Below, in pieces: positions 3,708 through 63,912 of a stretch of 63,912 nt of DNA (the stretch's first letter is position 1; each line of letters starts with the position of its first letter). The notes below the pieces were generated by a model. That model saw nothing but the letters and a program-made list of their open reading frames with translations. It searched no databases and was not told where the DNA came from. A program made the translations under genes and the position numbers. This stretch comes from Fidelibacterota bacterium CG08_land_8_20_14_0_20_45_22. GTDB lineage: Bacteria > Fidelibacterota > UBA2242. Location: contig PEYN01000191.1 in NCBI GenBank assembly GCA_002774355.1, positions 1 through 63,912 of the forward strand. The letters run 5' to 3'.

Positions 3708-3711
3708 AGTC

Positions 3712-4593: not shown

Positions 4594-4650
4594 ACATACA
4601 GCATAAGGTATCGTAAGCTAAGATTTTCCATATAAAAATCAAACCAAAAT

Positions 4651-7708: not shown

Positions 7709-7710
7709 AC

Positions 7711-8190
7711 TCAGTCATTTCCGGAAGAGATAAAATAATCGATCAAAACATAAAAAATGAGCGTATAAAGCGTCGAAGGCAAAACAAATCGAAGAATGAT
7801 AAAATAAAAGGAGAATTCCGTTCCCTTATAGTTGATAAGATAGAAAATGACATAGGAAAACAGAATAATAGCCACGTGAACCGCATGATAATAAAACGGA
7901 TATAGTCTATTACGCTGGTTTTTCATACAACCAGAAAAAAATCCAACACATGTTTTAATCAACGCCGAAAGCCCCAAAAATGAGCCCATTCCCAGCGCAT
8001 CGACGAGCAAGCCGATGATAAAACCGTATGTCTGGCCAACCATCCGCCCCTCGGTTCTGCCGATAAACATTACGACGAGTAGTATGAAATCCGGGCGAAT
8101 CTCACGGATTGTCATCCAGGGTACAAAAAGAACTTGAATGAGAATAGCAATTAGGCTAAATAGGATTATATTTGTCAGTTTTCGTAACAT
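7711..8190 (-). CDS. mreD: rod shape-determining protein MreD
   Basis: Small polytopic membrane protein after mreC. The start was moved from 8310 to MLRKLTNIILFSL (8190), because the track extension overlaps mreC by 136 nt. Confidence 0.8.
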   Translation of the reverse strand: MLRKLTNIILFSLIAILIQVLFVPWMTIREIRPDFILLVVMFIGRTEGRMVGQTYGFIIGLLVDALGMGSFLGLSALIKTCVGFFSGCMKNQRNRLYPFYYHAVHVAIILFSYVIFYLINYKGTEFSFYFIILRFVLPSTLYTLIFYVLIDYFISSGND

Positions 8191-48800: not shown

Positions 48801-48936
48801 AGATGTCGAAGTTATCAGACTGAATGTACGACCAGTGATAGTTGTCATATTGCACCTTGTTTTTCCCAAATTGGGAATAAGCGATCCCGGTTAGAAAAAA
48901 AGAAACGAATAGACTGATGATAATGATTTTCTTCAT
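45832..48936 (-). CDS. tripartite envelope protein: gluzincin-like metallopeptidase domain, PD40/TolB-type beta-propeller and Omp85/BamA-like C-terminal beta-barrel
   Basis: About 1034 aa from MKKIIIISLFV (a signal peptide; the track ORF starts 14 codons earlier, at 48978). It has HELLH (nt 48523-48537) followed by WMHEGLAEY. Repeated PD40 units are seen (AISPSGDKVAIMSDR.., WSPDSKKIVLAV, WSPDGESIALVG, WSPDSKKIVFAS). The last ~350 aa are strand-alternating and end YYLSLGLDF, with an aromatic terminus. Confidence 0.7.
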   Translation of the reverse strand: MKKIIIISLFVSFFLTGIAYSQFGKNKVQYDNYHWSYIQSDNFDIYFYEGGEDLALFAEPVVEQALKDISSILNWRVRKRISLILYNSHSDFQQTNVILDYMYEGIGGVTELFKNRAVVPFDGSYADFWHTLRHELLHVVVNDMIYGGNVQSMISGRVRLQIPLWMHEGLAEYTSLGWDTHADLTLRDAALGNEIPNLDELDYYMTYKGGQSVYRYIASRYGNEKIGEIWAQMKGHGNAEKGMKAAIGMDMKELGEKWHRWVRAEYWPDVADRDEIKTMSKQLTDHRKIKNYFNTGPAISPSGDKVAIMSDRKGYADIFLISSLDGKPITKLVSGQKSPDLEELKWLNPRLSWSPDSKKIVLAVKSGKDDALIIVDVKTKKRERITFTNLDEIFDAAWSPDGESIALVGLKSDRSDLYLYNLKTKTTRRLTNDRESDFEPSWSPDSKKIVFASQRNGYGNDGKVSKENLASGIEFRQTDLYVYDMTDSSITRLTDSPWDENYPVWANTKNAIIYTSDMEGISNIYVYSLDTKESVAITSVLTGIFQPSLSKDDSRLAFAGFADGGWDIYMVSNPLSMMNEKKEIKPTVYAKEIMKSWNEPAKAVLKNDSSEVVKPTLTRTVSVAQNYSNYIFAPSIDAVGMIPDEPDTTPVKTDTLQNKTPDGKFVVNPYKTKFTLDMIDSQAGYNTFWGLQGTTIFAFSDILGNHQLLFGTEMYIDLENSDYYLAYQYLGKRTNYSVVGFHSANFWSLSYYYMLRLRNYGADFSVSRPFSRLSRSEFGLTSYNVEQSLINVLTGTTDTSITINTLLPRVGFVFDNTLWGYFYPMDGWRGRLDFMMSPKYNKNSMEFQSLTFDLRRYYKLDNEYSFGLRLSGGLSEGKNAQRFFLGGESNWINQKYRRYHDYENVEDLYFSQFVTPLRGARYYEREGTRYFLANLEFRYPFIKYMALGWPLPMRMGGIQGITFLDFGSAWDGTDFHPFGRDLANGLYMDDLVSGVGCGMRLFFGYFLLKIDVAWRYDFDQFSKPKYYLSLGLDF

Positions 48937-49049
48937 GTTTTTTGAAACCAAGAGATGCTTGATTTGTTCCTTACGCAAGTTACCTTCAAAGTTACACGTC
49001 CAAGTTTACACATTTTTCTTAGACAGAACGAACATTAAAAAGCTACGAC

Positions 49050-51011
49050 TCATTTGAGATACACGACCTTCTGTTGTTTGAAAATACCCGAGCCTTCCAG
49101 CCGGATGAAATACAAACCTGATGAAATTCTGTTTGGTGTCCAGGTCTCGCGTAAATTTCCTGCTTTTAATCGACCAGTTTGAATTTCGTCAATCTTTTTC
49201 CCTGCCAAATCCACGACCGTCAATGCGCCCTGAAAATCAATCGGCAAATAGACCTGAAAAGTTACAGTCTGATTAAACGGATTGGGAAATGGTTCGGAAA
49301 TGGAAATTTCGTTGGGAAACTCACCGACATCCGGATCAATCGTGACATCACTGACACTTTTTAAAATCCATGAATCGGGATCGATCTCGACGGAAAGCGG
49401 TTTGGCGGCGCAGATCATCGTAAAATCCTGTGACGGAAGGCTGTCCCAAATCGTTAAAGATTCGTCGCCATTTTCCGTTTTCACGACGATGTCAATCGGC
49501 ATCAAAAAAACAGTCGATGTCGTCTGAATCTGATCGATATGCAAATCAAGCAACCAACTGCGGTTATCGTTTCGGTTTCTCTGCCATTTGAATTTATAAT
49601 GTGGCTGGCCTTCTCCGTAAACCCATTTGTCGAAAAACCAATCTAAATCCATCCCAGAAACCGACTCACAAACATGATGAAAATCCCGCGTCTGCGCTAC
49701 GCTCATGCCGTACGTTTCCCGGTACGCCCGCAGAATTTGGTTAAAACCGCTTTCCCCGACGATTTTCCGAAGCATGTGGAGAACCCACGCGCCTTTATCG
49801 TAAACTACGCGGTCGAAAATGAATGCCACATCCGTCGTATCCGTTACGAGAAGACGATTAGAACGCCACTCGCTCGGTCGATTAAGGTAATCCATATAGA
49901 CTTTTAGGCTTCCGGGACCGTTTTGGTGCTCGAACCAGTAAGCTTCACAGTATCGAGCAAATCCCTCGTTTAGCCAGATATGACGCCAGTTGGCGCAAGT
50001 GACCATATCGCCCCACCACTGATGAGCGAGCTCATGCGCGATCAGCAGTTCTCCGTAACTACCCAGACTCGTACATGTCTGATGTTCCATCCCACCACTC
50101 CAGAGAAATTGAACCGTTCCATATTTTTCTTTGATAAACGGATATTCGCCAAATACTGTCGAGAAAAAATGAATCATATCTTTTGTCATACTCAACGTGG
50201 TCATAGCCGATTCGACCTGATCGGGAAAAATCCAGAACTGAATCGGCATATTTTCGCCTTTGAGTCCGGTGTAACTATCCTCGCGGTAGGCGTATTTTGA
50301 AACGGCTAAAAAGATTAAATAATTGGCGATTGGGTATCGTTCCTGCCAGTGAAAAGTCGCAGTTCCGTTCCCATTTTGGATCGTCTCGGCCAACAATCCG
50401 TTCGAAACCGCAACAAGAGTATCGGGAATGGTAATGTAGAAATCGACCGAATCGATTTTATCTTCGGGTAAATCTTTACAGGGAAACCACGTGCTGGAAT
50501 AATATGGTTGATCGAGCGAGGCAACGACCGGCACTCCATCATGTTCACCGAACATCAATCCTTTTCTTCCCAGGTTTTTCGGAAAACCGTGATACCAGAT
50601 TTTGACTTCCGCGATTTCACCAATTCCGAAATCTCTATTCAACGACAAAGAAAGCCGATTGGAAACGTGAGTAAATCCACTTGCGACGCCGCCAATGCTA
50701 TCGACGATCATCGCTTCGTCCAGATCCAGATCGATAGCCGCCAGATTGGCTTCGAGCGACCGGACGCGGATTACGGTCAGCCCGGAAATTGATTGAGCGG
50801 GAATATTCAGATTCAAATCCAAGCCGAGATAACCGACATCGAACGAACTTTGCGATGCTGATGAACTTTTTAAAGAAGAAAATCGGATTGCACCGATTCC
50901 TTCCGATTTGCGAAAAATTTCCGCATCGATAGGATCCGTCGAAAGTGGTGCTTGTGCCCGCAATTCTACCAATAAAACACACAGAAGCAATAAGTTGAAT
51001 TTGATTTTCAT
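49050..51011 (-). CDS. M1-family aminopeptidase with T9SS (Por) C-terminal sorting domain
   Basis: 653 aa with a signal peptide, exopeptidase motif GGMEH, HELAHQWWG and WLNEGFA. The C-terminal ~80 aa, PFPNPFNQTVTF...SGLYFIRL...KVVYLK, are typical of a Por secretion tail. Confidence 0.88.
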   Translation of the reverse strand: MKIKFNLLLLCVLLVELRAQAPLSTDPIDAEIFRKSEGIGAIRFSSLKSSSASQSSFDVGYLGLDLNLNIPAQSISGLTVIRVRSLEANLAAIDLDLDEAMIVDSIGGVASGFTHVSNRLSLSLNRDFGIGEIAEVKIWYHGFPKNLGRKGLMFGEHDGVPVVASLDQPYYSSTWFPCKDLPEDKIDSVDFYITIPDTLVAVSNGLLAETIQNGNGTATFHWQERYPIANYLIFLAVSKYAYREDSYTGLKGENMPIQFWIFPDQVESAMTTLSMTKDMIHFFSTVFGEYPFIKEKYGTVQFLWSGGMEHQTCTSLGSYGELLIAHELAHQWWGDMVTCANWRHIWLNEGFARYCEAYWFEHQNGPGSLKVYMDYLNRPSEWRSNRLLVTDTTDVAFIFDRVVYDKGAWVLHMLRKIVGESGFNQILRAYRETYGMSVAQTRDFHHVCESVSGMDLDWFFDKWVYGEGQPHYKFKWQRNRNDNRSWLLDLHIDQIQTTSTVFLMPIDIVVKTENGDESLTIWDSLPSQDFTMICAAKPLSVEIDPDSWILKSVSDVTIDPDVGEFPNEISISEPFPNPFNQTVTFQVYLPIDFQGALTVVDLAGKKIDEIQTGRLKAGNLRETWTPNRISSGLYFIRLEGSGIFKQQKVVYLK

Positions 51012-53299: not shown

Positions 53300-54115
53300 A
53301 TGATGGAATCTGATCTGGCTTTCGATGATTACTTTAATCACCTTGGACTGAAAGAAGGTTATCATCTACTCATCCATAGCAGTTTTCGTCAGATACGTTC
53401 TGCTTTTCATTCTTTAAATATCGAAACACTGATCGCAAACTTAAAATCCAAAATTACTCCAAACGGATCGATCATCATGCCCGCCTTTACTTATTGTTTC
53501 AAAAGGCGAAGTGGCGGTTACGATATTTTCGACCGTGAGCATACACCCGCCAAAACCGGCGCCGTTTCGGAATTTTTCCTCGACTCCGCTGAAGTCATTC
53601 GGACTAGCTCACCCACGCACTCATTCTCACTGTAGAGAAAAATAACTGGCGAAATCGGCGAAGATAATTCACCCTACCGCCCACTTGGAAACGGAAGCAT
53701 TCTCGAATGGTTGTCAAACCGATCCAATGCTTTTGTCCTTTTGCTGGGCGTTGATTTTTCTGCGATGTCCTTTTTCCACTACTTGGAAAACCGCGCTCCC
53801 GTTCCGTAGAGCGATTTTTCTCCATGGAAACATTTAGGCGTCGAACCGATCGGCGTTTCAATTCACGGTGAGCAGGTATTGCATGAAATACCCAGTTGCG
53901 CCAAATCCTTCGTCAATTATGAATCTTATCTTCGAGAAACCAGTCAAATTACTTACGTGAAGTCGGGAGATTCGACGTCTTCACTGATTCCTGTTTCTTT
54001 ACTGATGGAGACCGGATTACCGTTTTTCCGGGACAATTACCGCTATCTACTTTGTGACGAAAACACTTGCCCTACGTGTGACTCACGTCGTGTTGCCTTT
54101 TTATCCAACCGCTAA
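53300..54115 (+). pseudogene. AAC(3)/Antibiotic_NAT-family N-acetyltransferase interrupted by two in-frame TAG codons
   Basis: A single frame runs from ATG 53300 to TAA 54113-54115 (272 codons), with amber codons at 53633-53635 and 53807-53809. Family motifs are present: LLIHSSFRQI, GSIIMPAFTY and RTSSPTHSFSL*. By recalled family consensus, the TAGs sit at typical W/I and Y positions (HSFaa[W/I]G and vP[Y]R). The track splits the gene into ORFs 53222-53635 and 53879-54115. Confidence 0.7.
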
Positions 54116-54191: not shown

Positions 54192-55574
54192 ATGAAAAAA
54201 TTATCACATAAAATTGCCTTGTTTATCGGGTTACTAATTGCGTTGATTGTGATTCTTCTCTCGGTTCCGACTTACTGGCAGACTCACCAAACGATGGAAG
54301 AAGAACTTTCCCGAAACCTGAAAATAAATATCGTTCTTTTGCGGGAGCGATTGGACGTCGCACTTATCGGTTTTCTTAACCGTTATCCGGAATCGAACGT
54401 CGCCCGAGATTCCATCCGACAAATGTTAGAAACAAACCTATCAAAGGTTTCAGCCAGTTCCATTTATCTGATTCGGACAGACACTTCTTTGCTTATCTCA
54501 ACGGGAAAAGAAGAAGTCGGCGTCAAATCCCTGATGTTGCATTCCAATGAAATCTCCCGCACTTTCCGGGGTGAAATCGTATGCTCGCCGCTTTTCTCCG
54601 ATGACAATGGAAACTATTATAAATCGACCTTCAGCCAGCTTCACCTACCGGATGGTTCCATTGTCATTGTAGCAATTGACGCCAACGCGACATTTCTTCA
54701 GGACGTCGCCAAATTGAAAAGCCAGATGATTTGGAGTGGATTGACAATTCTCCTACTGGGAATTTTCATCTCGATTCTAGCTTCTCGTAATTTGACAAAA
54801 CCGCTCGGACTTTTAACAAAATATGCCGAGGAAATCGGAAAAGGACGCAACCATCCGTTAAATTTAAAAAGCCGAAGTGATGAGATCGGTTTTCTAGGCA
54901 AAACGATGCAAAAAATGCAGACGGAAATCGATCTTCGAGAAAAAGAGAATAAACAACTTTTAGCGTCAGTCGCCCACGAGATTCGCAATCCGCTCGGCGG
55001 TATGAAAATCAATGCCGAATTGTTAATAGAAGAATCTCAAAACGCGCCTGAGTTGGCAGAATTTGCAAACGCAATTTTCCGGGAAGTGAATCGTCTTTCA
55101 GAAATCGTTGACGCTTTTCTTGCTTATGCGCGACCCGTTGAAAGCAATCTGGTCAAAAGCGATATTCGGAATTTGCTAACAGAAAGCATCAGTGAAATAC
55201 GCCAGTTTTTTCCAAACCATACATTCGTCGTGGATGGCGAAGGTAGTCTTTGCGTTCATCCGGGAAAAATTCAACGCGCCTTCACCAATTGTCTGCGAAA
55301 TGCCGCTGACGCATCCAGCGAATCCAATCCAATCCAAATCAAAATCCATCAAATTGGCGATGAATTGACTATCTCATTTTTCAATCAGGGCAATCCAATC
55401 CCAGAAAAAATCCAGCCTCAGATTTTTGACGCTTTCTTCAGCACCAAATCAAGCGGCATCGGCCTAGGGCTATCGATTGCCAAATCCATCGTCGAAGAAC
55501 ATGGCGGTTTCATCCGACTCGCGCTTTCGGATGAAAGCGGCACGGAATTTGTCATCACCTTACCGGAGCAATAA
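54192..55574 (+). CDS. sensor histidine kinase with periplasmic sensor domain
   Basis: 460 aa with two TM segments flanking a ~150-aa extracytoplasmic domain. It has a HAMP-like linker, H-box SVAHEIRNPLGG, N-box CLRNAADA and G-box STKSSGIGLGLSIA. Confidence 0.9.
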   Translation: MKKLSHKIALFIGLLIALIVILLSVPTYWQTHQTMEEELSRNLKINIVLLRERLDVALIGFLNRYPESNVARDSIRQMLETNLSKVSASSIYLIRTDTSLLISTGKEEVGVKSLMLHSNEISRTFRGEIVCSPLFSDDNGNYYKSTFSQLHLPDGSIVIVAIDANATFLQDVAKLKSQMIWSGLTILLLGIFISILASRNLTKPLGLLTKYAEEIGKGRNHPLNLKSRSDEIGFLGKTMQKMQTEIDLREKENKQLLASVAHEIRNPLGGMKINAELLIEESQNAPELAEFANAIFREVNRLSEIVDAFLAYARPVESNLVKSDIRNLLTESISEIRQFFPNHTFVVDGEGSLCVHPGKIQRAFTNCLRNAADASSESNPIQIKIHQIGDELTISFFNQGNPIPEKIQPQIFDAFFSTKSSGIGLGLSIAKSIVEEHGGFIRLALSDESGTEFVITLPEQ

Positions 55575-56942
55575 ATGAACGAACCGAAGAAAAATTTCAG
55601 AATCCTAATTGTCGAAGACAACCAATCTCTACGCGACGGCATGACCGCATTTCTGAAAAAAGACGGATTCGACACAGTTTCTGCGGAAGACGGTAAGAAA
55701 GGACTCAATCTATTTTCATCATCACAATTTCATCTGGTTATCACTGACATTAGGATGCCGGAACTTGATGGCATCGAACTGTTCAAGGCGATCAAGAGCC
55801 TGCGACCTGCGACCGAAGTTATCTTAATCACGGCTTATGCTTCCGTCGATATCGCCGTCGAGACGATGAAATACGGCGCAGAAGATTTTATCACCAAGCC
55901 ATTCTCCATCGCCGAGCTCCGGAAAAAAGTCGAAATGATTTACAACCGGTTTTCGACTCGACAACAGATCGAATCTTCATCGGTCGAAACGCCTTTGCTC
56001 ATCGGCCAATCGCCGGCTATTGAAAAAATCCGTGCGGTGATCGAAAAAGTCGCCAAAGTCAACAGTCCGATTCTCATCACTGGCGAGAGCGGCACGGGAA
56101 AGGAACTCGTCGCGTGGACGATTCACCAACAGAGTTTCTGTCATCATGGACCATTCGTCGCTGTGAACTGCGGAGCGTTGAATGAAAACCTTCTTGAAAG
56201 CGAACTATTCGGTCATGAAAAAGGTTCTTTTACCGGCGCCGTCAAAACACATGTGGGCAAATTCGAGATCAGCAACGGCGGAACGCTTTTCCTCGATGAA
56301 ATTGGCGAAATGTCTCCAGCTCTTCAGGTCAAAGTTCTTCGCGTGCTTCAAACAAAACAGTTCCATCGCGTCGGCGGCGAAAACCCGATTTCCAGCGATT
56401 TCCGGCTCATTGCCGCAACGAACAAAGACTTACAAGCGGCGATTCGGGACGAATCCTTCCGGAGCGATCTCTTCTATCGTATCAACGTTATTCCTATCTT
56501 TATTCCGCCACTAAGAGAACGAAAGGAAGACATCCCACTATTGATAGACTTTATCATTCGGAATAAGTCTGAAAAACTCGGTAGAAAAACACCGGCTATC
56601 GATACCAGCGTCATTCGGAAACTCACACATTATTCCTGGCATGGAAACATTCGTGAATTGGAAAATTTTCTCGAACGTGCGCTCATTTTTATCGAAGAAA
56701 ATCGGTTCAGCGATGATCTGTTCGCCTTCACCGATCTCGGCGAATCGGAGAATGGACACGCGTCCCAACCTGACGGAAATCTGGTTCAATCCGTCGAAAA
56801 GATCGAGCGGGAAATGATCGTCAACGCATTGCGCGCTTCCAAAGGCGTCAAACAACACGCCGCCGATGCGCTGAACATTAAAACCGGCGCTCTTTATTAC
56901 AAGATCGACAAATACGGAATCGAAGAGAGCGAGTATTTATAA
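55575..56942 (+). CDS. sigma-54-dependent response regulator (NtrC family enhancer-binding protein)
   Basis: 455 aa. Receiver domain ([13 protein letters not shown]), AAA+ Walker A GESGTGKE and sigma-54 contact loop GSFTGA (a one-residue variant of GAFTGA). It also has LFLDEIGE and a C-terminal Fis-type HTH. The ATG directly abuts the kinase stop codon. Confidence 0.92.
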
Positions 56943-56943
56943 A

Positions 56944-57963
56944 ATGAGAAAATGGTTCGGCATCCTTCAGCGAAAAATGAAATTTCATGGTTGGATTACC
57001 TGCATGATGCTTTGGTTATTCAGTTCCGCATCCGCAGGCCAATCTCTTTCGGATTATCACAACGCAATTTCCGCCGACATCTCTGAAATCGCCTTGTTTG
57101 TTCAGAAAGAAAAAAAACTTTTGACAGAACAGACCGAAATCGAAAAATCTATTTCATCCCTGAGACAAGAAAGAAATCCCGACTGGATGAACCGACGGAA
57201 AATCACAAAACTCACGGAGAAAAAAGCAAAAATCAGCGACCAGTTGATGATCGCTTACAAGCAATCAGCGGGGAAAAAGGCAAGCGCGAACCGGATTTTC
57301 AACGCATATTATCCGCTGATTTCGTCGAAAATCGACTCCGTTATTGATCTTTTGGAAAATATAACCGAACCGCCACGCCGTACAAATGCGATTTTGACTC
57401 TTTTAGAACTCAGAGACCGCCGAGACTGGCTCCTACAAAATCAACGTTATTTTGCACCTGCGGGGATTATAATCCTGCCCCGCAAGGATGATATTCTCGA
57501 ATTCATTAAAAATCCATCTCAGCAGGCGATGCTGAGAACCGAACTTATCAGGATTCTGCGCGAAAAAGTTGATCAGATCGACCTGATCATTGCCGCCGCC
57601 AAAGAAGAAGAACTCCTTAGAAAACGGATGGCGCAATTCGCATCGGAAATGACCGCTTTTTCCGGCGAGATCAATCCTGCTAATTCCCGCAGTTACCAGA
57701 CGACACTTACCGAACGCGATTTAAAAATCACAGACGAAGACGCAACTTACGGAAACGTCGTTCCAACCAATTTAGGCCTCGAAGAAACCTGGACGACGCG
57801 CACAGTTCAGACTGAATTTCCGATGACGTTGAACAGCGAAGATTATCTGCATATTGTCCAGCCAATACCGTCTAAAAACATGCGCTCGTACATCAGTCAG
57901 ATGGATTCCATCAAGACCTATTACCTAAAGCAAATCGCCGAACTCGAACAGAGGAAACGGTAA
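56944..57963 (+). CDS. secreted alpha-helical/coiled-coil protein, unknown function
   Basis: 339 aa with signal peptide ...WLFSSASA/GQ. The body is highly charged and helical (KEKKLLTEQTEIEKSISSLRQ..., AAAKEEELLRKRMAQF). It starts 1 nt after the regulator's stop codon. Confidence 0.65.
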   Translation: MRKWFGILQRKMKFHGWITCMMLWLFSSASAGQSLSDYHNAISADISEIALFVQKEKKLLTEQTEIEKSISSLRQERNPDWMNRRKITKLTEKKAKISDQLMIAYKQSAGKKASANRIFNAYYPLISSKIDSVIDLLENITEPPRRTNAILTLLELRDRRDWLLQNQRYFAPAGIIILPRKDDILEFIKNPSQQAMLRTELIRILREKVDQIDLIIAAAKEEELLRKRMAQFASEMTAFSGEINPANSRSYQTTLTERDLKITDEDATYGNVVPTNLGLEETWTTRTVQTEFPMTLNSEDYLHIVQPIPSKNMRSYISQMDSIKTYYLKQIAELEQRKR

Positions 57964-58056
57964 CATCAAATTTCACGACCCGCCGCTTCTCCAAACTATA
58001 GAAAATAGTCACTTTTCCCTTTTTCCATTTTAGTTTTCCATGTATTTTCTCCACTG

Positions 58057-59124
58057 ATGAAGAACAGAAAAACCGCCGGACTCGGGATATTCCTGAAAAT
58101 CCTTTGCGCTACGTTTTGGGTCAGTTCACTTTTACAAGCGGCGACCGAGCAAACATTCTCATCGTACGTCAAAGCAGAAGTTTTAATGGAGAACAACATC
58201 TTCGAGTCGGATTCCAATCGCATCGACGACAATGCCGGTCAGTTCTGGTGCGGCATTCTCGCTAATCAATCCACCGACCGATCTAACCGACGAATCAGTC
58301 TCATCGGCAATTATTCCGCTTATTTCAAAAATCCCGAAGAAAACAAACTTATCACGACCGGCAATTGGCTATATTATCTTGCACTTTCTCCCAAAATTTT
58401 CTTCAAATCGCAGGCGAATCTCCTGACCAAGTGGTGGCAAAACGCGCCAAACGCTTACTCAGATGTTGATTTTTCCGCGAATGTCGGAACCAGATTCGGA
58501 AAATCCGTTACTCAAATTGGCATTTATTACCGGAATGACTGGTTTCGCTATGCTCAACGGTTCAATTCAACACAAATCGGCATAGTTAGTGAGTTACAAT
58601 TCCAACCGGCAAAGACTTGGACGCTTTCTAGTAAATCTTCTATCCTGAAAATCGATTACCCTAATCGGCAGGTTTATCACGAACCCGATACAAGTTCGAG
58701 AATACACAAACTCCAGCAAGACGTCGTTCTGTTCGGTCAAATCGGATTTGAACACCGAAAAATTTGGATCGCGGGCGGAAGTCTCCGATTCTCTTATCTC
58801 AATTCCAACAGCCAATATTCCTCATTTGCCAACGCCTCGATACGAGTTTATGCGACGCGAAAAATCAGGCGTCTGCTTTTACAGGCAATCGCCGAATTTC
58901 AACTCAAACGTTACTTGGATGATCCCTCCGAAAAAGCCATTTATTATAATCCCGATCCTGAACAAAACGTCCAGAACCAAATTTTCCTTGGGTGGGAAAA
59001 CGAACTATCCGGCGGGCTGTCATTGGCCGGCAAGTTCGCCTTTTTCCGGAACGAGACGCAGTACAGCGGCATCTATTACAACAAATGGTTCGCGTCCGTC
59101 GGCTTGCAATATCGGTTCGAATAA
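58057..59124 (+). CDS. putative outer-membrane beta-barrel protein, unknown family
   Basis: 355 aa with signal peptide ...SSLLQA/AT. Repeated amphipathic strands are seen (ISLIGNYSAYF, WLYYLALSP, IGIYYRNDWF, LSLAGKFAFFRN), with aromatic-rich C-terminal strands ASVGLQYRFE. Confidence 0.55.
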   Translation: MKNRKTAGLGIFLKILCATFWVSSLLQAATEQTFSSYVKAEVLMENNIFESDSNRIDDNAGQFWCGILANQSTDRSNRRISLIGNYSAYFKNPEENKLITTGNWLYYLALSPKIFFKSQANLLTKWWQNAPNAYSDVDFSANVGTRFGKSVTQIGIYYRNDWFRYAQRFNSTQIGIVSELQFQPAKTWTLSSKSSILKIDYPNRQVYHEPDTSSRIHKLQQDVVLFGQIGFEHRKIWIAGGSLRFSYLNSNSQYSSFANASIRVYATRKIRRLLLQAIAEFQLKRYLDDPSEKAIYYNPDPEQNVQNQIFLGWENELSGGLSLAGKFAFFRNETQYSGIYYNKWFASVGLQYRFE

Positions 59125-59134
59125 TCCCCGAATC

Positions 59135-59174
59135 CTCAGAAATCTGAGACTCACCGTCAGGATTCTGAGTTTTT
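59135..59174 (+). terminator. hairpin plus T5 after the barrel gene (alternatively two enhancer-type palindromes)
   Basis: CTCAGAAATC...GATTCTGAG pair (7 bp, a bulge, then 2-3 bp), followed by TTTTT at 59170-59174. Confidence 0.45.
59136..59168 (+). promoter_or_regulatory. two 12-nt palindromes TCAGAAATCTGA / TCAGGATTCTGA spaced 21 nt centre to centre: candidate enhancer-binding-protein sites
   Basis: The palindromes lie at 59136-59147 (perfect 5+2+5) and 59157-59168 (one arm mismatch). Their centres are about 72 and 51 nt upstream of the candidate -24 GG. A third half-site, ATTCTGAG, recurs at 59260-59267. Confidence 0.35.
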
Positions 59175-59211
59175 CCGGCAAATCAAACAACCTCACTCGA
59201 CTGAAATCGCT

Positions 59212-59226
59212 TGGAACGATATTTGT
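59212..59226 (+). promoter_or_regulatory. candidate sigma-54 (-24/-12) promoter of the lipoprotein-serpin operon
   Basis: TGGAACG-ATAT-TTGT compared with the consensus TGGCACG-N4-TTGC. The GG-to-G spacing is exact. There are two mismatches, and one affects the conserved -12 C. The site lies 50 nt upstream of ATG 59276. Confidence 0.35.
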
Positions 59227-59275
59227 CTTTATTCCTCCGGACGATTGAAAAGTTGCAATATTCTGAGTTGATGAA

Positions 59276-59725
59276 ATGAAAATTTTGATGGGAAAAACTT
59301 CCAAAACGGCAAAAACATTGATCGTTTTTCTGGTCGCGATTTTACTGGCGGCATGCATTCTAGAACCGGAAGAAGAATCCTATCTGGATATCGATGAAAT
59401 CGTCGAACTCAAATTGGGCGAACGCAAGATCGGTCAACCGTCAGGATTGGAGGTCGGCTTCGAGAAGCTCATTTCCGATAGCCGGTGTCCGATCGGCATC
59501 CTGTGTTTCTGGCAGGGAATGGCGGAAATTCAGATTTCATTAAAAATACCGGATAAGACACGCTACTATTTTACTCTTGATTCTTACAACCACACAACCG
59601 TCGATACACTCGGGCTTCACATGGAATTTTTACAGTTGGACCCTTACCCGATATTTTCCGAGGAATACGACACGTTGAAACTTGTCGTGACGCTAAAAAT
59701 ATCACGACCAATTCTAGAACTATGA
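59276..59725 (+). CDS. small lipoprotein with conserved-looking Cys motif, unknown function
   Basis: 149 aa with a perfect lipobox LLAAC followed by an acidic stretch ILEPEEESYLDIDE. The motif DSRCPIGILCFWQGMAEI has a Cys pair, and the body is beta-rich. Confidence 0.65.
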   Translation: MKILMGKTSKTAKTLIVFLVAILLAACILEPEEESYLDIDEIVELKLGERKIGQPSGLEVGFEKLISDSRCPIGILCFWQGMAEIQISLKIPDKTRYYFTLDSYNHTTVDTLGLHMEFLQLDPYPIFSEEYDTLKLVVTLKISRPILEL

Positions 59726-59762
59726 AAATATTCGTTAAAAACGGACAGAAAAAGGAAACACT

Positions 59763-61007
59763 ATGAAAACGAAAACAATTCTCACTCTCTCGATTCTCTC
59801 ACTCGTTTATCTGTGGAGTTGCGATGATTCGACGAATCCGATCGATGATAACTGGAAACTCAAACGCGATCTGACGGTTGCGGAGGTTAAAATTACTGAA
59901 GTCGATAATAAGTTCGGACTGAAACTCTTCAGGGAAATATCCAAGAATCAATCAGATTCCAACATCTTCATTTCGCCACTAAGCGTAACGATGGCGCTCG
60001 GCATGACCTTTAATGGCGCGGCGGGTGAAACGCAAACTGCTATGCGGAATACGCTCGAATACGGCGACCTTTCAATCGACGAAATCAACCAATCTTACTA
60101 TGGATTGATCGATCTGCTGACTTCCGCAGATTCTAAAGTCAACTTCCAGATTGCCAACTCCATCTGGTATCGGAACACATTTTCAGTGCTGGCAGATTTC
60201 ATCAATGTGAATAAAAAATATTTCGATGCCGAGGTATCAGCATTGGATTTCGATCGAAGCGACGCGGCGGACATTATCAATTCCTGGGTCAATGAAAAAA
60301 CCAACGGCAAGATCAAGGAAATCGTGCCAAAACCCATTTCATCCGAGATGGTGATGTACCTGATCAATGCCATTTATTTCAAAGGCAGTTGGACTTACGA
60401 ATTTTCTAAAGACCGCACAACCGACGAACCGTTCTTCTTATCTTCTGGTAATTCGAAGACTTGTAAGATGATGAGTCACAAGAGCGAGCATCCATATTTC
60501 CAGAATGAACAGGTTCAGGCAATCGATCTGGCTTACGGTAATGCCGGATTCAGCATGACCATTTTCTTGCCCGCTATCGGATCAAACGTCAACACGTTAA
60601 TTGAATCGCTGAACAACGACTCATGGAACGATTGGCTCTCACAGTTCGATACCGCCGAAGTTTCACTCTTCATGCCAAAATTCAAGTTGTCTTATAATCT
60701 AAAAATGAATGATGTTCTTTCAACGCTTGGAATGGAAACCGCCTTCGTTCCGGGGCTGGCGGATTTTACCAAAATCAATGCTAACGGTGAGCTTTATATC
60801 AGCGAAGTCATGCATAAAACGTTCGTCGATGTCAACGAAGAAGGCACTGAAGCCGCCGCAGTGACAGCAGTCGGGGTCGGATGTACGAGCGTCGGTCCCG
60901 AGTCGCCGGTCATGCGAATCGACCGGCCGTTTGTCTTCGCGATCCGCGAAAGACAGTCCGGAACGATACTATTCATCGGAAAAATCATGGAACCCATCAT
61001 CGAATGA
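59763..61007 (+). CDS. serpin (inhibitory-type hinge), predicted lipoprotein: copy A
   Basis: 414 aa with a signal peptide and LWSC/DDSTNP. Serpin core motifs are present (NIFISPLSVTMALGM, FKGSW). The hinge NEEGTEAAAVTA and reactive centre loop (RCL) occupy nt 60843-60923, followed by RPFVFAIRE. Confidence 0.9.
   Translation: MKTKTILTLSILSLVYLWSCDDSTNPIDDNWKLKRDLTVAEVKITEVDNKFGLKLFREISKNQSDSNIFISPLSVTMALGMTFNGAAGETQTAMRNTLEYGDLSIDEINQSYYGLIDLLTSADSKVNFQIANSIWYRNTFSVLADFINVNKKYFDAEVSALDFDRSDAADIINSWVNEKTNGKIKEIVPKPISSEMVMYLINAIYFKGSWTYEFSKDRTTDEPFFLSSGNSKTCKMMSHKSEHPYFQNEQVQAIDLAYGNAGFSMTIFLPAIGSNVNTLIESLNNDSWNDWLSQFDTAEVSLFMPKFKLSYNLKMNDVLSTLGMETAFVPGLADFTKINANGELYISEVMHKTFVDVNEEGTEAAAVTAVGVGCTSVGPESPVMRIDRPFVFAIRERQSGTILFIGKIMEPIIE
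60960..60985 (+). repeat. 26-nt stretch identical between the two serpin genes (copy A)
   Basis: GGAACGATACTATTCATCGGAAAAAT encodes GTILFIGKI. The identical string occurs at 62228-62253. Confidence 0.9.
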
Positions 61008-61030
61008 GGATTAAAGAAAGAGGATTAAAG

Positions 61031-62278
61031 ATGAAAAATATCATCCAAAATATTTCTGCTCTTCTCATAATGGCGGCGATTTTTATGAATTGCTCGGATG
61101 TCACTGCGCCAAATTCCGACGAAATTCCGCAATTGCCAAGACATCTCAGCAAGTCCGAACAGACATTGATCGAATCGAGCAACTCGTTTGGATTTGATCT
61201 TTTTAAAAAATTGTCGGACGATGTTAAAGACAGCAACCTGTTCATCTCGCCAGTTTCGGTTTCGATGGCACTGGGAATGACATCTAATGGCGCGGCAGGT
61301 TCTACGTTGGAGGCAATGCATTCAACGCTCGGTTTTGAAAATCTTACAGAAGATGAAATCAACAAATCTTATCAAAGTTTGATCAAATTGCTGAGAAACC
61401 TCGATCCGAAGGTCAAATTCCGGATCGCGAACTCCATCTGGTACCGAAACGGATTCGCCGTTTTGCCGGCGTTTATTGACGTTAACCAAACGTTTTTCGA
61501 TGCGGCGGTGCGAAGCCTTGACTTTAGTCAGGACGCCGCCGTCGATGCGATGAACGACTGGATCGAAGAACAGACCAATGGTCTCATCAAACAAATTCTC
61601 GATAAGCCGATCGATCCAAATACGGTTATGTTTCTGCTTAATGCTATTTATTTTAAGGGAACGTGGACATATCAATTCAATGAAGAACACACAGGCAATG
61701 CACCATTTTATCTGCATAGCGGCGAATCGACAACCTGTAAAATGATGTCGATCAGTGGCGATTTCGATTACACTGAGACTGACGAACTTCAGATAATCGA
61801 CCTGCCGTACAACGACGGATATTTTGCCATGACGGTACTCCTGCCGGAATCCAGTATCGATACCGACTCGTTGATAAGCATCCTGACCGATGAAAAATGG
61901 AACGACTGGATTTCTAATTATTCCAAAACGACCGTCGATCTTTATTTGCCGAAATTCAAACTCGAGTGGTTCCGGAAACTCAACGATTCATTGACAAGCC
62001 TCGGCATGGGAATCGCATTCAGCGATGAACAAGCGGATTTTACTCGCATAAATGCCGACGATGGTTTGTACATCAGCGAAGTCAGACATAAAACATTCGT
62101 TGAAGTCGATGAAGAAGGCACCGAAGCGGCGGCGGCAACTTCAGTCGAGATAACATTTGAAAGTATCAAAGAACAGAATATGCTTGTCAATCGTCCGTTC
62201 ATTTTTGCCATCCGCGAGCGCGCCTCTGGAACGATACTATTCATCGGAAAAATATATCAACCCGAATGGAGCGAATAG
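61031..62278 (+). CDS. serpin (inhibitory-type hinge), predicted lipoprotein: copy B
   Basis: 415 aa from MKNIIQNISALLIMAAIFMNC/SD, with a GAGGA Shine-Dalgarno site upstream. The track ORF start at 60881 is an extension into copy A. The hinge DEEGTEAAAATS and RCL occupy nt 62117-62191, followed by RPFIFAIRE. Confidence 0.9.
   Translation: MKNIIQNISALLIMAAIFMNCSDVTAPNSDEIPQLPRHLSKSEQTLIESSNSFGFDLFKKLSDDVKDSNLFISPVSVSMALGMTSNGAAGSTLEAMHSTLGFENLTEDEINKSYQSLIKLLRNLDPKVKFRIANSIWYRNGFAVLPAFIDVNQTFFDAAVRSLDFSQDAAVDAMNDWIEEQTNGLIKQILDKPIDPNTVMFLLNAIYFKGTWTYQFNEEHTGNAPFYLHSGESTTCKMMSISGDFDYTETDELQIIDLPYNDGYFAMTVLLPESSIDTDSLISILTDEKWNDWISNYSKTTVDLYLPKFKLEWFRKLNDSLTSLGMGIAFSDEQADFTRINADDGLYISEVRHKTFVEVDEEGTEAAAATSVEITFESIKEQNMLVNRPFIFAIRERASGTILFIGKIYQPEWSE
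62228..62253 (+). repeat. 26-nt stretch identical between the two serpin genes (copy B)
   Basis: Same string as at 60960-60985. Confidence 0.9.
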
Positions 62279-62333
62279 ATAAAACCGGATTTCAACCGAG
62301 AAAAATTGAAAATCACAACACATAAGAGGTAAA

Positions 62334-63912
62334 ATGAAAGACAAGCCAGTTCTAAGACACATTATATCCAACCTGCTTATTCTATCCGGAATCGTGACGG
62401 CGACAGTTCCCGATCCGGTCACCCGCCAGCCTTCGGTTCCCTATCTGCTGGAGCCGATTGGTTTCCGCACCATGCAGATGGCGATCTTTGCGACGGAAGT
62501 CAGCGGCATGGTTCCGGATAAGTTCAGTGACCTGAGATGGAATCCGGCTTATATCTTAAGGGAAAAGCAAAAGACTTTTTACATCGATTTCAATCTCGAA
62601 AGCACGGTGGAATCTTCTTTGAGCCCGTTGTCCTCTTCCCTGCTCACTGACAGCTATTATCTCGCACCGTCCTGGTACAGCCAGACCAGTGTTCAGAATA
62701 TGAATATCGCGCCGCTCTATAATCTGGCGCTGATCCTGCCACTGAATAAACGAATAATCCTGGGAATCGTCAACCGTTCGGTTTTCGACTATGGACCTTA
62801 CCGTAACTCGACCTGGTGGTCGAGCGGCGGCTGGTTCGATGAAGCGGTCAGGTCTAATGCCTACGCCGCTCTCGAACCGCAACGCCTGGAAACCGATGAA
62901 AATCAGCAGATCGTCCTGGCCAATCAGGCAGAGATTACATTGGGCTACCGGTTGTCGACCAAAACCGATCTCGGTTTTCACCTCGGACATTACATTTTTC
63001 ACCGGGACGGTAATCTGTATGATTCTCAATGGGCAACCTATCCGCATTCTTCGTACGGAATTCTCAACGATGAAGACATGCGGATCAACGGTCAGCACAT
63101 CGACCTGGGCACCGGAATTCTCCATCATTTGAACGATAAGACTACTTTCGGAATTTCCGCGGGTGTGTTTCTTGGTTCCGGCAAAGAGGAGGAGGTCTCG
63201 CAGGACACCTCGGATTCGTTTTCTGAAACAGCTACTAACACTGCCTATTACAATATATCCAAATACAAAATGGACAGCGATTATTCCTATAAAACTTCCG
63301 GTGTGAAACCTTACCTGACTTTAACTTTCGAGAAAAACCTTAATAAAAACCTTGTCCTGCGGTCGTTTTTTTCTTATTCCCCAAAAAGTCAGGATGTTAC
63401 CACAAATTATGCGTCCGACGATACCAGTTTTAGCGACCGGACTTATGATCACTGGATTGCGACCAACACTTATGCCTTTCGGCGTTGCACAGATCACAGC
63501 GCCGCCGAATTCAACCTGAACGGTTCCGGAGAAAAAACGATTAATCAGTGGAAATTCCTGACCTCCCTGATTTATAAAATGGAAAACGATTGGGCGCTAT
63601 TTGGCGGAATGCAAATTAGCCGGCAATGGTCTCAGGTCGATTTTGACGAGAGTTCTGACTACTATTCCAATTCCCTTACCGAATACACGCTTTACAATGC
63701 CAGCACGTATCGCAATCTCGACACTTATACAAAAAACTATTCATATTCAGCCGAATCTGATGTTTGGAGTCTCATCGTACCAATCGGCGTAAAAGCTCAT
63801 ATTGCTAAAGGTTTCTTTGCCTTACTCGGCACCGAAATCAGCCTCAGCCTGTTAGAGGAAAATAGTCACGGCGACTTGCTCTATCCGGACATAGTATCGC
63901 AATACTGGGTAA
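62334..63912 (+). CDS. large secreted, probably outer-membrane beta-barrel protein, N-terminal 526 codons (runs off the right edge)
   Basis: Absent from the ORF track because no stop lies in the window. The ATG at 62334 is preceded by an AGAGGT Shine-Dalgarno site. I translated every codon to 63911 and found no stop: MKDKPVLRHIISNLLILSGIVTATVP...GFRTMQMAIFATEVSGMVPDKFSDLRWNPAYI... This is a FadL/PorV-like plug motif similar to the one in the gene at 432-1640. Tyr/Ser/Asn-rich strand-like segments follow. Confidence 0.7.
   Translation, partial: MKDKPVLRHIISNLLILSGIVTATVPDPVTRQPSVPYLLEPIGFRTMQMAIFATEVSGMVPDKFSDLRWNPAYILREKQKTFYIDFNLESTVESSLSPLSSSLLTDSYYLAPSWYSQTSVQNMNIAPLYNLALILPLNKRIILGIVNRSVFDYGPYRNSTWWSSGGWFDEAVRSNAYAALEPQRLETDENQQIVLANQAEITLGYRLSTKTDLGFHLGHYIFHRDGNLYDSQWATYPHSSYGILNDEDMRINGQHIDLGTGILHHLNDKTTFGISAGVFLGSGKEEEVSQDTSDSFSETATNTAYYNISKYKMDSDYSYKTSGVKPYLTLTFEKNLNKNLVLRSFFSYSPKSQDVTTNYASDDTSFSDRTYDHWIATNTYAFRRCTDHSAAEFNLNGSGEKTINQWKFLTSLIYKMENDWALFGGMQISRQWSQVDFDESSDYYSNSLTEYTLYNASTYRNLDTYTKNYSYSAESDVWSLIVPIGVKAHIAKGFFALLGTEISLSLLEENSHGDLLYPDIVSQYWV

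Follow-up and report, generated by a model that had tools for sequence, protein, structure and literature searches.

Gene content of the block

The locus occupies the end of the window (i.e., the whole 63,912-nt stretch of DNA that was analysed), all of its genes are encoded on the plus strand, and its host was identified as Candidatus Marinimicrobia (Fidelibacterota). The initial annotation had counted nine co-directional genes, of which eight were found, while the ORF positions and gaps given there (0, 1, 37, 23 and 55 nt) were reproduced. The first gene (54192-55574) encodes a sensor histidine kinase (HK) in which, according to Pfam and the translation, two transmembrane segments surround a periplasmic domain of ~150 aa, followed by HAMP, HisKA and HATPase_c domains; the periplasmic domain matches no known family. 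HK orthologues, sharing 44-85% identity, stand first in the block in 13 lineages. After a 0-nt gap follows the gene of an NtrC-family sigma-54 enhancer-binding protein (EBP, 55575-56942), composed of Response_reg, Sigma54_activat, AAA_lid_14 and HTH_8 (Pfam; Sigma54_activat 2e-69); D58 sits in its REC domain and GSFTGA is the loop sequence of its AAA+ domain. Pfam hence confirmed the proposed pair of sensor kinase and NtrC-type sigma-54 activator. Among the EBP orthologues the HTH_8 domain is kept, and the loop reads GAFTGA in 10/13 and GSFTGA in 3/13.

Two further proteins complete unit 1. The gene of a secreted 339-aa protein with a signal peptide (56944-57963, 1-nt gap after the EBP gene) was found at the same place, between the EBP and 355-aa barrel genes, in all related loci compared; the protein, putatively coiled-coil according to the initial annotation, has no Pfam or NCBIfam match, and 1.84 billion proteins yielded no more than 24 representatives of its family. 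The subsequent gene (58057-59124) encodes a 355-aa protein which AlphaFold2 models as a 16-stranded outer-membrane beta-barrel (pLDDT 82.5). Here, Foldseek returned generic porin, OmpG, FadL, PgaA and CdiB matches only, at TM 0.4-0.5, and the family comprises eight clusters among 5.8 billion proteins, the named members being Marinimicrobia.

Unit 2 begins after a spacer of 151 nt with a 149-aa lipoprotein gene (59276-59725, lipobox LAAC), whose product possesses an invariant D-x-R-C-P-x4-C-x-W-x-G motif in the alignment, has no Pfam or PDB match and belongs to a family of seven clusters only. Its assignment to DUF6970 was ruled out on comparison. Serpin A (59763-61007, 37-nt gap upstream) and serpin B (61031-62278, 23-nt gap upstream) share 51% identity and were recovered by the Pfam Serpin model at 1e-119 and 4e-119, respectively, which together with the lipoboxes present upholds the earlier description as tandem serpin lipoproteins; for serpin B, with FMNC-SD as lipobox region, lipoprotein status is probable. 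Both hinges are of the inhibitory type as defined in PMC8233489 (EEGTEAAAV in serpin A; EEGTEAAAV/A across the serpins compared, all of which have lipoboxes), whereas the reactive loops (RCLs) differ, reading GVGC-T-S in serpin A and EITF-E-S in serpin B. The closest solved structure to serpin A is miropin (5ncs, E = 2e-81, RCL aligned), and judged by sequence both serpins are miropin-like, with an inhibitory-type hinge and predicted lipoprotein signals.

The last ORF (62334-63912, 55-nt gap upstream) is truncated by the window end after codon 526 of 593, the full 593 aa being given by the source contig (L001), on which a DUF3160 gene comes next, just outside the window. AlphaFold2 revealed a tall outer-membrane beta-barrel (pLDDT 87), so that for both barrel candidates the barrel fold was confirmed. 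The family of the 593-aa barrel consists of fifty-one clusters of about 590 aa, almost only from Marinimicrobia/FCB-group assemblies, and the four families of the 339-, 355-, 149- and 593-aa proteins are all clade-restricted orphans. The relation of the barrels to FadL/PorV, Slam/DUF560, BamA/TamA or LptD that was to be checked was not borne out, as profile and structure searches identified neither as a detectable member. FadL/TodX/PorV proteins (14 strands, N-terminal hatch) are among the best fold matches of both barrels, and near the N-terminus of the 593-aa barrel a conserved segment includes an invariant N-P-A, which we take to resemble the FadL hatch motif. PorV moreover works with cargo, and the 593-aa barrel gene adjoins type IX secretion (T9SS) cargo genes. 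However, the barrels have no Pfam or NCBIfam match (Toluene_X included for the 593-aa barrel), the Foldseek matches of the latter to FadL, TodX and TonB-dependent transporters stay at TM 0.2-0.3, and it exceeds the FadL-type barrels in length by about 170 aa, its strands reaching up to 37 residues; membership is not established. The likeness to Slam is one of logic alone, namely an outer-membrane barrel encoded beside lipoproteins which are possibly displayed, whereas both barrels are without a DUF560 match and without a periplasmic TPR domain.

Conserved elements upstream of unit 2 and within the kinase gene

Within the spacer, the previously noted twin-palindrome element was located at 59135-59174 and consists of palindrome 1 (CTCAGAAATCTGAG, 59135-59148), palindrome 2 (GTCAGGATTCTGAG, 59156-59169) and a subsequent T-run (59170-59174). 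Both palindromes are of the CTCAG-N4-CTGAG type with centres 21 nt apart, and across lineages the tandem copies lie 20-21 nt apart, whereby the half-site sequence, beyond mere pairing, is kept among lineages with 30-37% protein identity. They are best read as candidate tandem EBP-binding sites, centred about -96 and -75. The pair also folds, with the T-run, as a terminator-like RNA hairpin for unit 1 (-16.7 kcal/mol, z = -2.8), a fold which was counted against their reading as EBP sites.

About 50 nt downstream of the palindromes lies a candidate sigma-54-type -24/-12 promoter (TTGGAACGATATTTGTC, 59211-59227, with GG at 59213-14 and GT at 59225-26) with a predicted transcription start near 59238. 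Its form, TTGGAACG-N4-TTGT, departs from the consensus at both boxes, C being replaced by A at -24 and GC by GT at -12; the -24/-12-like motif pointed out in the initial annotation is present and conserved, whereas exact TGGCAC-N5-TTGC occurs nowhere in the window. Every lineage has GT or GA at -12 and none the canonical GC, which counts against the sigma-54 reading; locus L023 possesses TTGGCACATTCCTTGTA (TTGGCAC-N5-TTGT) at the equivalent position. A motif scan identified the unit-2 motif as the sole site above 19 bits within the 64-kb window, and in the 727 kb scanned nearly all such sites lie directly upstream of the first unit-2 gene, with two exceptions, one inside the kinase gene of L042 and one, weak and without GG, in L026. 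At about 17 loci, four of them outside the training set (L025, L035, L046, L062), the motif precedes the first unit-2 gene; at about 14/17 a palindrome in turn precedes the motif, at a distance of 53-56 or 73-75 nt (chance expectation ~0.06 per site). The 17 nt of the motif are conserved within intergenic DNA that is otherwise not alignable. Palindrome pair and motif were found at fixed spacing in every lineage with unit 2 behind the two-component system; at serpin-less loci both elements are absent after the barrel.

Elements of the same kind are embedded in the HK coding sequence. A palindrome of the unit-2 type (CTCAGATTTTTGAC, plus strand, 55417-55430) lies exactly 122 nt upstream of an internal sigma-54-type -24/-12 motif (GGCACGGAATTTGTC, plus strand, 55539-55553) in 13/13 lineages including the serpin-less L007 and L015, and the codons beneath it (Q408, Q410, I411, F412, F416) are nearly fixed. 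The internal motif, located in the codons G-T-E-F-V and 22 nt before the start codon of the EBP gene, has the form GGCACG-N4-TTGT, and its GG-N10-GT spacing equals that of the unit-2 motif. Codon usage at this position is almost uniform (GGC 12/13, ACG 12/13, TTT 13/13, GTC 12/13), whereas no other 4- or 6-fold degenerate column reaches 12/13 among 131 conserved columns. The motif is a candidate internal promoter for the EBP, 339-aa and 355-aa genes and the palindrome a candidate EBP-binding site for autoregulation. Because both reside in the 3' end of the HK gene and are kept by synonymous-codon conservation, they suggest that the activator drives its own expression.

The occurrence of the same palindrome and -24/-12 variant inside the HK gene of every lineage ties these elements to this two-component system, and speaks against the idea that the adjacency is a regulatory coincidence. 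The latter, which is quite improbable, would have the two-component system control only the 339-aa and 355-aa partners, with TGGAAC...TTTGTC recognized by a different factor or sigma and the palindromes serving as no more than the unit-1 terminator. A hairpin followed by a T-run would fit it, yet a terminator would show compensatory changes while here the palindrome sequence itself is kept, the copies stand in tandem 20-21 nt apart and the first one lacks a T-run. The deviating -12 element and the missing canonical consensus would likewise fit, as would the GGAAC of the unit-2 motif, which also resembles ECF-type -35 boxes; however, the block holds no ECF sigma gene, nothing is conserved 16-20 nt downstream of the motif, and the conserved stretch coincides exactly with the footprint from -26 to -10 and shows GG-N10-G spacing. 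That units 1 and 2 can occur separately is a further point in favour of coincidence. At the sequence level, the conserved palindromes, the -24/-12 motif and the kinase-internal copies give good support to a local control of the serpin operon by sigma-54, and the proposed placement of an EBP beside an activator-type promoter for the serpin block gained from the fixed spacing and from the four non-training loci. An rpoN match was absent from the 852 kb of sequence searched (the host's remaining genome lying outside that search), a point counted against the sigma-54 reading.

With NtrC/AtoC/ZraR-type systems (e.g., glnAp2, zraP) the block shares the EBP domain order REC, AAA+, HTH_8, palindromic sites of the dimer type at 75-140 nt upstream of a -24/-12 promoter, an adjacent target operon and, plausibly, autoregulation. 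AtoC, NtrC and ZraR are also the best NCBIfam matches of the EBP, but every score lies below the equivalog cut-off. Further differences are the -12 element (TTGT or TTGA, not TTGC), the embedding of one promoter together with its upstream site in kinase coding sequence, and the cargo, which consists of envelope proteins and serpins.

Cargo variation among related loci

The block is syntenic in relatives, as the order HK, EBP, secreted protein, 16-strand barrel, small lipoprotein, serpin(s), 593-aa barrel and DUF3160 or other T9SS cargo was identified in about 12 species-level lineages and persists down to 30-35% protein identity. The full block is present in the window, L008, L011, L013, L017, L027, L032, L039, L040, L042 and L059, and partially in L041. 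The two-component system is not serpin-specific, because the HK-EBP-339-355 core occurs without serpins or unit 2 in L007 and L015/16, and because L023 combines an EBP, 339- and 355-aa homologues, the 593-aa barrel and two DUF3160 genes with no serpin. Unit 2 stands behind other genes in L025 and L062. Among 40 decidable species-level loci, a serpin is directly adjacent to the 593-aa barrel in 26 and absent in 12, and all these observations render serpins a frequent but non-obligatory cargo.

It was considered whether unit 2 chiefly serves uptake or a surface enzyme, in which case a FadL-like 593-aa barrel and the secreted DUF3160 enzyme would form the core, serpins would be optional guards of these exposed proteins and the two-component system would sense a substrate instead of proteolysis. 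This possible, though rather unlikely, explanation would account for L023 and for the 12/40 loci in which the 593-aa barrel occurs alone, and it draws on the invariant N-P-A, on FadL and TodX among the fold matches and on the enzyme-like character of DUF3160, in which 234 positions are near-invariant, with His/Asp motifs as usual for enzymes, and which is termed a "secreted enzyme" in PMC4158269. The 26/40 loci with a serpin beside the barrel, and 1-3 serpins in 11/12 loci linked to the two-component system, argue against it, as do the weak FadL likeness without a Toluene_X match and an operon devoid of substrate-related enzymes and inner-membrane transporters.

The exported proteases announced near the block are real, since in the window it is adjoined by two peptidases, one of type M1 carrying Por_Secre_tail and one of MA type carrying a propeller, but the flanking genes differ in relatives and the adjacency is not conserved. 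Tannerella forsythia pairs T9SS proteases with lipoprotein inhibitors, and T9SS-tagged proteins abound in the window and in related loci, several being encoded downstream in relatives. These points would agree with serpins that shield the cell from the type IX-secreted peptidases it produces itself, be it in the periplasm or on its surface, rather than from foreign proteases, the cassette being co-induced with a proteolytic lifestyle. Such self-protection is doubtful, as the adjacent peptidases are metallopeptidases, not normally serpin targets, their genes are not conserved in relatives and the conserved block contains no serine peptidase gene.

Proposed mechanism and known serpin systems

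The preferred reading, with a probability of about 0.6, is a Marinimicrobia-specific regulatory and cargo cassette, in which a two-component system switches a sigma-54-dependent serpin/barrel operon for on-demand surface remodelling. The proposed mechanism assumes that an envelope or extracellular cue is sensed by the HK, proteolytic damage being one candidate, and that the phosphorylated EBP would bind the two CTCAG-N4-CTGAG palindromes, whose centres precede the start site by about 75 and 96 nt. Thus bound, it would open the promoter TTGGAACG-N4-TTGT before the adjacent operon and switch on the Cys-motif lipoprotein, the two miropin-like serpin lipoproteins, the 593-aa barrel and the DUF3160 protein; the latter carries a type IX secretion sorting domain in relatives (Por_Secre_tail in the L008 homologue). 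With the third palindrome and the second -24/-12 motif in the last 160 nt of the HK gene, the EBP probably raises its own level, and the same internal promoter would co-raise the 339-aa protein and the 16-strand barrel, amounting to positive feedback. The most likely role is on-demand remodelling of the cell surface, where a dedicated barrel and an enzyme anchored at the surface would be joined by serine-protease inhibitors. The further suggestions of the initial annotation, that the kinase responds to proteolysis and that the barrels and the 339-aa protein export or anchor the serpins, gained no support.

Miropin of Tannerella forsythia (PDB 5ncs), a broad-range inhibitory serpin from an FCB-group bacterium with T9SS, shares the identical hinge EEGTEAAAVTAV, and its RCL EMVKTS aligns with GVGCTS. 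Neither sigma-54 or two-component wiring nor a partner barrel is known to us for miropin, which moreover acts in a host-pathogen setting, whereas the bacteria considered here are free-living in anoxic environments and encode tandem paralogues with differing RCLs.

The statement that no bacterial serpin locus with this wiring had been described was overstated, as in Bifidobacterium breve a two-component system encoded beside the serpin operon controls it (Alvarez-Martin 2012, as summarized in PMC8012564). According to the same summary, that operon is inducible and autoregulated, papain and other proteases were shown by experiment to be the inducing signal, and protection against environmental proteases was proposed as its role. 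The likeness thus lies in a two-component system next to a serpin operon, but B. breve is a Gram-positive actinobacterium, and its system has no outer-membrane barrels, T9SS cargo or tandem serpins and is not reported to depend on sigma-54. The sigma-54 two-component wiring of the block is well supported by the conserved DNA signals and is new for serpins.

Gene content of the block and its spread

The block at 54192-63912 had been described in the initial annotation as nine co-directional plus-strand genes, of which eight were counted here; apart from this number, its open reading frames were borne out, as were its domains by Pfam. The first unit comprises a histidine kinase (54192-55574, +; Pfam HAMP/HisKA/HATPase_c), an NtrC-type response regulator, i.e., a sigma-54 enhancer-binding protein (EBP; 55575-56942, +; Pfam Response_reg, Sigma54_activat, AAA_lid_14, HTH_8), a secreted protein of 339 aa (56944-57963, +) and a protein of 355 aa which was modelled as a barrel (58057-59124, +). 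Following a spacer of 151 nt between 59124 and 59276, the second unit consists of a 149-aa lipoprotein (59276-59725, +), serpin A (59763-61007, +; Pfam Serpin E = 1e-119), serpin B (61031-62278, +; E = 4e-119), whose true start lies inside a longer mechanical ORF, and a large ORF running from 62334 (+) to beyond the window end. The 339-, 355- and 149-aa proteins as well as the large ORF gave no Pfam or NCBIfam match. The window's contig was recovered from several metagenomes, and one copy reaching further (L001) revealed the last ORF to encode 593 aa, with a DUF3160 gene behind it (Pfam E = 1.5e-86 over the 401 aa present). The remainder of the window is made up of minus-strand housekeeping genes (PBP2, PurH, IMPDH, HutH, BatA, RsmB, KdtA, HflX), and tRNA and Rfam scans of the whole window were empty. 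The exported peptidases which had been recognized nearby are real, namely a 1048-aa Peptidase_MA_2 protein bearing a PD40 propeller and a 653-aa M1 peptidase which carries a T9SS sorting domain; these two metallopeptidases are encoded within 45832-51011 (-). Among the relatives examined, the genes flanking the block differ.

Homologue searches among 5.8 billion proteins gave only eight clusters (at 90% identity) for the 355-aa protein, the named ones being from Candidatus Marinimicrobia/Neomarinimicrobiota, and searches among 1.84 billion proteins gave 24 representatives for the 339-aa protein, while seven clusters were obtained for the 149-aa lipoprotein and 51, all of about 590 aa, for the 593-aa protein, which is present in 46 loci of species-representative genomes mostly labelled Neomarinimicrobiota or Fidelibacterota. 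These four proteins are clade-restricted orphan families. When all loci retrieved were annotated by blastp comparison to the proteins of the window, and gene tables were added, the synteny of the block was confirmed: its full order was found in the window and in ten other loci (L008, L011, L013, L017, L027, L032, L039, L040, L042 and L059) and a partial one in L041. The shared order starts with homologues of the kinase, the EBP, the 339-aa and the 355-aa protein (the four-gene core), and proceeds optionally with the 149-aa lipoprotein and a zinc-ribbon protein of 364 aa. Then come between one and three serpins and the 593-aa barrel, with DUF3160, further proteins carrying a T9SS sorting domain, or both at the end. 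Across these full-order relatives, identity of the 355-aa protein amounts to just 30-37%, and the block is flanked by different genes. Reduced variants were also identified: the core occurs without unit 2 in L007, is interrupted by a restriction-modification pair in L015/16, and is joined in L023 by the 593-aa barrel and two DUF3160 genes without any serpin. Among 40 species-level loci with enough flank to score adjacency, a serpin gene lies immediately upstream of the 593-aa barrel gene in 22, immediately downstream in four and further off within the locus in two, and is lacking in 12. Serpins are thus frequent, not obligatory cargo.

Regulatory DNA before unit 2 and candidate copies within the kinase gene

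The EBP possesses the features of the NtrC family, i.e., a REC domain with D58, an AAA+ domain with Walker A/B motifs and a GSFTGA loop (GAFTGA in 10 of the 13 orthologues) and a C-terminal HTH_8 (Pfam), which is well conserved across orthologues. Its nearest NCBIfam families are AtoC, NtrC and ZraR; judged by the equivalog cut-offs, it is an orthologue of none of these specifically (441 bits vs 714 for AtoC, 393 vs 559 for NtrC, 364 vs 760 for ZraR). The local sigma-54 control that had been postulated for the block is well supported by comparative evidence. Within the window, the proposed -24/-12-like motif TTGGAACGATATTTGTC at 59211-59227 held true as to its GG-N10-G spacing and its conserved -24 box, but not as to the GC at -12. 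When the spacers of relatives with about 35% identical proteins were aligned, a 17-nt block (yTGGAAYGrTATTTGTC) was near-invariant within otherwise unalignable DNA. A weight matrix was built from 11 motif instances and scanned over 727 kb on both strands, whereby nearly all hits above 19 bits fell directly in front of the first unit-2 gene, except for a kinase-internal copy in L042 and a weak site without GG in L026; four loci outside the training set were also found (L025 with 28 bits, L035, L046 and L062). All lineages share the GG-N10-G spacing, and conservation extends to the TGG(A/C)ACG box. The canonical sigma-54 definition is matched incompletely, because GT (about 15 lineages) or GA (two) replaces GC (none) at the -13/-12 dinucleotide throughout, and even in L023, where TTGGCACATTCCTTGTA has the canonical -24 box, TTGT recurs at -12. 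This recurrent TTGT suggests a lineage-specific sigma-54 promoter variant. Exact and one-mismatch searches of the window with the canonical consensus returned nothing relevant and no TGGCAC-N5-TTGC, and the 852 kb of sequence searched yielded no RpoN box. In L027, the promoter motif recurs in weaker form (position 8588, 16 bits) between the two serpin genes of the locus, with a palindrome 73 nt upstream.

The twin palindrome noted ahead of the motif is likewise real, with copies CTCAGAAATCTGAG (59135-59148) and GTCAGGATTCTGAG (59156-59169) followed by TTTTT. About 14 of 17 motif sites are preceded by a (C/A/T)TCA(G/A)-N4-(C/T)TGA(G/T/A) palindrome whose start lies 53-56 or 73-75 nt upstream, as compared to about 0.06 per site expected from the background rate, and wherever two palindromes were seen they are 20-21 nt apart, i.e., two helical turns. 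Behind the barrel gene of the serpin-less loci L007 and L015/16, neither the palindrome nor the -24/-12 element was found. Since the palindromes of the window fold into a hairpin of -16.7 kcal/mol followed by U5, they may additionally terminate unit 1; a consensus terminator scan missed this hairpin (59135-59174), whose loop exceeds the limits of the scan. Conservation of the half-site sequence, whereas a terminator would show compensatory change, the tandem arrangement of the copies with helical phasing, and the lack of a U-run behind the first copy favour protein binding as the primary role of the palindromes. Further matches were discarded as coding sequence, namely a palindrome-like one at 62523 (encoding FSDLR, conserved in L008) and minus-strand motif matches within the 593-aa gene (encoding EKYDSN).

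The matrix scan identified another instance, GGCACGGAATTTGTC, at 55539-55553 within the C-terminal G-T-E-F-V motif of the kinase, 22 nt before the EBP start codon, and this internal -24/-12 motif (GGCACG-N4-TTGT) is present in all 13 lineages, the serpin-less ones included. In a codon alignment of the 13 kinases with 131 conserved, degenerate columns, the only four- or sixfold degenerate columns using one codon in at least 12 of the 13 lineages are G450 (GGC), T451 (ACG) and V454 (GTC); F453 is TTT in all 13, and just a few positions off, codons for Gly, Leu, Ser and Pro vary freely. A palindrome of the same type, CTCAGATTTTTGA(G/C/T) at 55417-55430, is located exactly 122 nt upstream of the internal motif in every lineage, and the codons under it are nearly fixed. 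From this conservation, we read the 3' end of the kinase gene as holding a candidate internal sigma-54 promoter along with a separate activator site, whose centre would be near -140. This promoter would drive the genes for the EBP, the 339-aa and the 355-aa protein and hence make for a candidate positive feedback; the kinase-internal copy would also tie this putative binding-site type to this particular regulator. Long spacers of L007 before the kinase gene (L007:5292-5725) and between the EBP and the 339-aa homologue (8477-8848) hold several similar, GC-rich, hairpin-like repeats of about 40 nt, e.g., ...GATCCCTGCGGGAAAGGGATCC....

Serpins, barrels and the proposed function

The closest solved structure to the serpins is that of miropin from Tannerella forsythia (E = 2e-81). 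Inhibitory serpins are characterized by the hinge motif ExGTEAAAA at P17-P9 (PMC8233489), and hinges of this type were found in both serpin A (EEGTEAAAV) and serpin B (EEGTEAAAA), so that, from fold family and hinge, both are predicted to be of the inhibitory type. The reactive loop of miropin, EMVKTS, aligns with GVGCTS of serpin A, the corresponding loop of serpin B being EITFES; because these loops differ, the two paralogues are probably aimed at different targets. By-eye pattern matching identified a lipobox Cys in the 149-aa protein (LLAAC) and serpin A (YLWSC), that of serpin B (IFMNC) being non-canonical. Wherever the N-terminus of a serpin orthologue was clear, its signal peptide ended in a Cys, and Ser-Asp frequently came next. 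The 149-aa lipoprotein is not homologous to the DUF6970 lipoprotein which follows the serpins in L008, and a profile search of PDB sequences with its family gave no match.

The 355-aa protein was predicted as a 16-strand barrel (pLDDT 82.5) with generic fold matches to OmpG, FadL, PgaA, CdiB and porins (TM 0.4-0.5). The model of the 593-aa protein (pLDDT 87) is a barrel of about 14-16 strands, which are up to 37 residues long, and a conserved N-terminal segment contains the invariant N70-P71-A72. By comparison, barrels of the FadL/PorV type are defined by 14 strands and an N-terminal hatch bearing NPA. The protein had been termed FadL/PorV-like, a label which reaches as far as a resemblance in fold, as Foldseek returned FadL, TodX, TonB-dependent transporters and a Bdellovibrio OmpA with a probability of 1.0 but TM values of 0.2-0.3, and not as far as the family, as neither barrel had a Pfam or NCBIfam match to FadL/Toluene_X/PorV at E <= 0.1-1. 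A search of PDB sequences with the 593-aa family profile gave 0 hits. Slam/DUF560, BamA/TamA (POTRA + Omp85) and LptD were likewise considered and gave no profile match, CdiB and PgaA being only generic barrel matches; the two barrels are not detectably related as paralogues either (hhalign probability 0.7%). For DUF3160, alignment of L008:15966-18428 with its homologues revealed 234 near-invariant positions including FVTTDAxLHxxHxxxD, PRGHYT, ELRHDT and ADVHTD, and these clustered His/Asp motifs suggest a metal-dependent enzyme. The sole literature found on this domain calls it a "secreted enzyme" (PMC4158269), and its profile had no match among PDB sequences. Several loci encode two to five tandem DUF3160 or T9SS-tagged paralogues. 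T9SS cargo was identified in relatives, i.e., the L008 DUF3160 protein with FlgD_ig and Por_Secre_tail (2.5e-6) and a 452-aa protein of L011 (Por_Secre_tail 3e-13); this result rests on relatives, the window's own DUF3160 gene ending at the contig end before its C-terminus.

According to the suggested mechanism, the phosphorylated EBP would bind the palindromes and activate sigma-54 transcription at two start sites, near 59238 for unit 2 and near 55564 for its own gene, and the cell surface would be remodelled by the products, i.e., the serpins together with a partner barrel and an enzyme anchored via T9SS. Protease sensing and export by the barrels, as assumed from the outset, is put forward as a hypothesis, which is weakened because serpin-less variants exist. 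In its fullest form, to which we give a chance of roughly one in seven, the tall 593-aa barrel would be the outer-membrane partner of the serpin lipoproteins, serving as translocon or docking platform, and the cassette a self-amplifying, sigma-54-gated "protease shield", whereby the kinase, the periplasmic 339-aa protein and the 16-strand barrel detect envelope proteolysis and the surface is coated with inhibitors. To our knowledge, the route of lipoproteins to the surface in the FCB group is still unresolved, and the partner-barrel reading, if true, would point to a cargo-specific surface-lipoprotein display system in this group.

We know of few bacterial serpins which are understood in their native regulatory context. 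Within the open-access literature searched, no paper was found to link serpins with sigma-54 in bacteria, or serpins with Marinimicrobia. The locus would provide an example, phylum-wide and validated by comparison, of serpins under the control of a sigma-54 activator; moreover, it links serpins to four orphan envelope families and to DUF3160, which is widespread and of unknown function, hence giving a testable context for each. The logic of a two-component system joined to serpins is not unprecedented, since a passage in PMC8012564, citing Alvarez-Martin 2012, describes a protease-inducible, autoregulated two-component system adjoining the serpin operon of Bifidobacterium breve. From this system the Marinimicrobia locus appears to differ in its putative sigma-54 mechanism, promoter variant and coding-embedded feedback promoter, and it differs in its orphan outer-membrane proteins, T9SS cargo, DUF3160 and phylum. 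The candidate promoter and site hidden in the kinase codons, visible only via synonymous-codon conservation, illustrate cleanly how coding and regulatory constraints can overlap, and the TTGT promoter variant would escape standard consensus scans.

Mosaic structure and neighbouring genes

Comparison of the 3' part of the operon (window 62334-63912; L001:11538-14576) with L011, L008 and L059 revealed that identities of the barrel and DUF3160 and those of unit 1 follow different relatives. Unit 1 and the serpins share 78-91% identity with L011, compared with only 44% for the 593-aa barrel; with the distant loci L008, L013 and L059, identity reaches 77-81% for the barrel and about 75% for DUF3160 but 45-49% for the kinase. 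The operon is mosaic, which suggests an exchange of its 3' cassette between lineages. Directly upstream of the kinase, an aminoglycoside N-acetyltransferase-like gene (53303-54115, +) contains two in-frame TAG codons, both at positions which are Trp in the intact, 74% identical L011 orthologue, and is probably a pseudogene which arose via two TGG-to-TAG changes. The restriction-modification pair between the 339- and 355-aa homologues consists of N6_N4_Mtase and BsobI-type endonuclease genes (L015:7374-9760, L016:2-2157), and a VapBC-like pair is located behind the barrel in L016. In L043, a 1404-aa ORF (2927-8367) begins with MSKVLGLDLGTNSIGWAVV, recognized by eye as a Cas9-like RuvC-I motif, and is followed by ORFs of 295 and 112 aa (Cas1-/Cas2-sized), all upstream of a stand-alone 593-aa barrel homologue.
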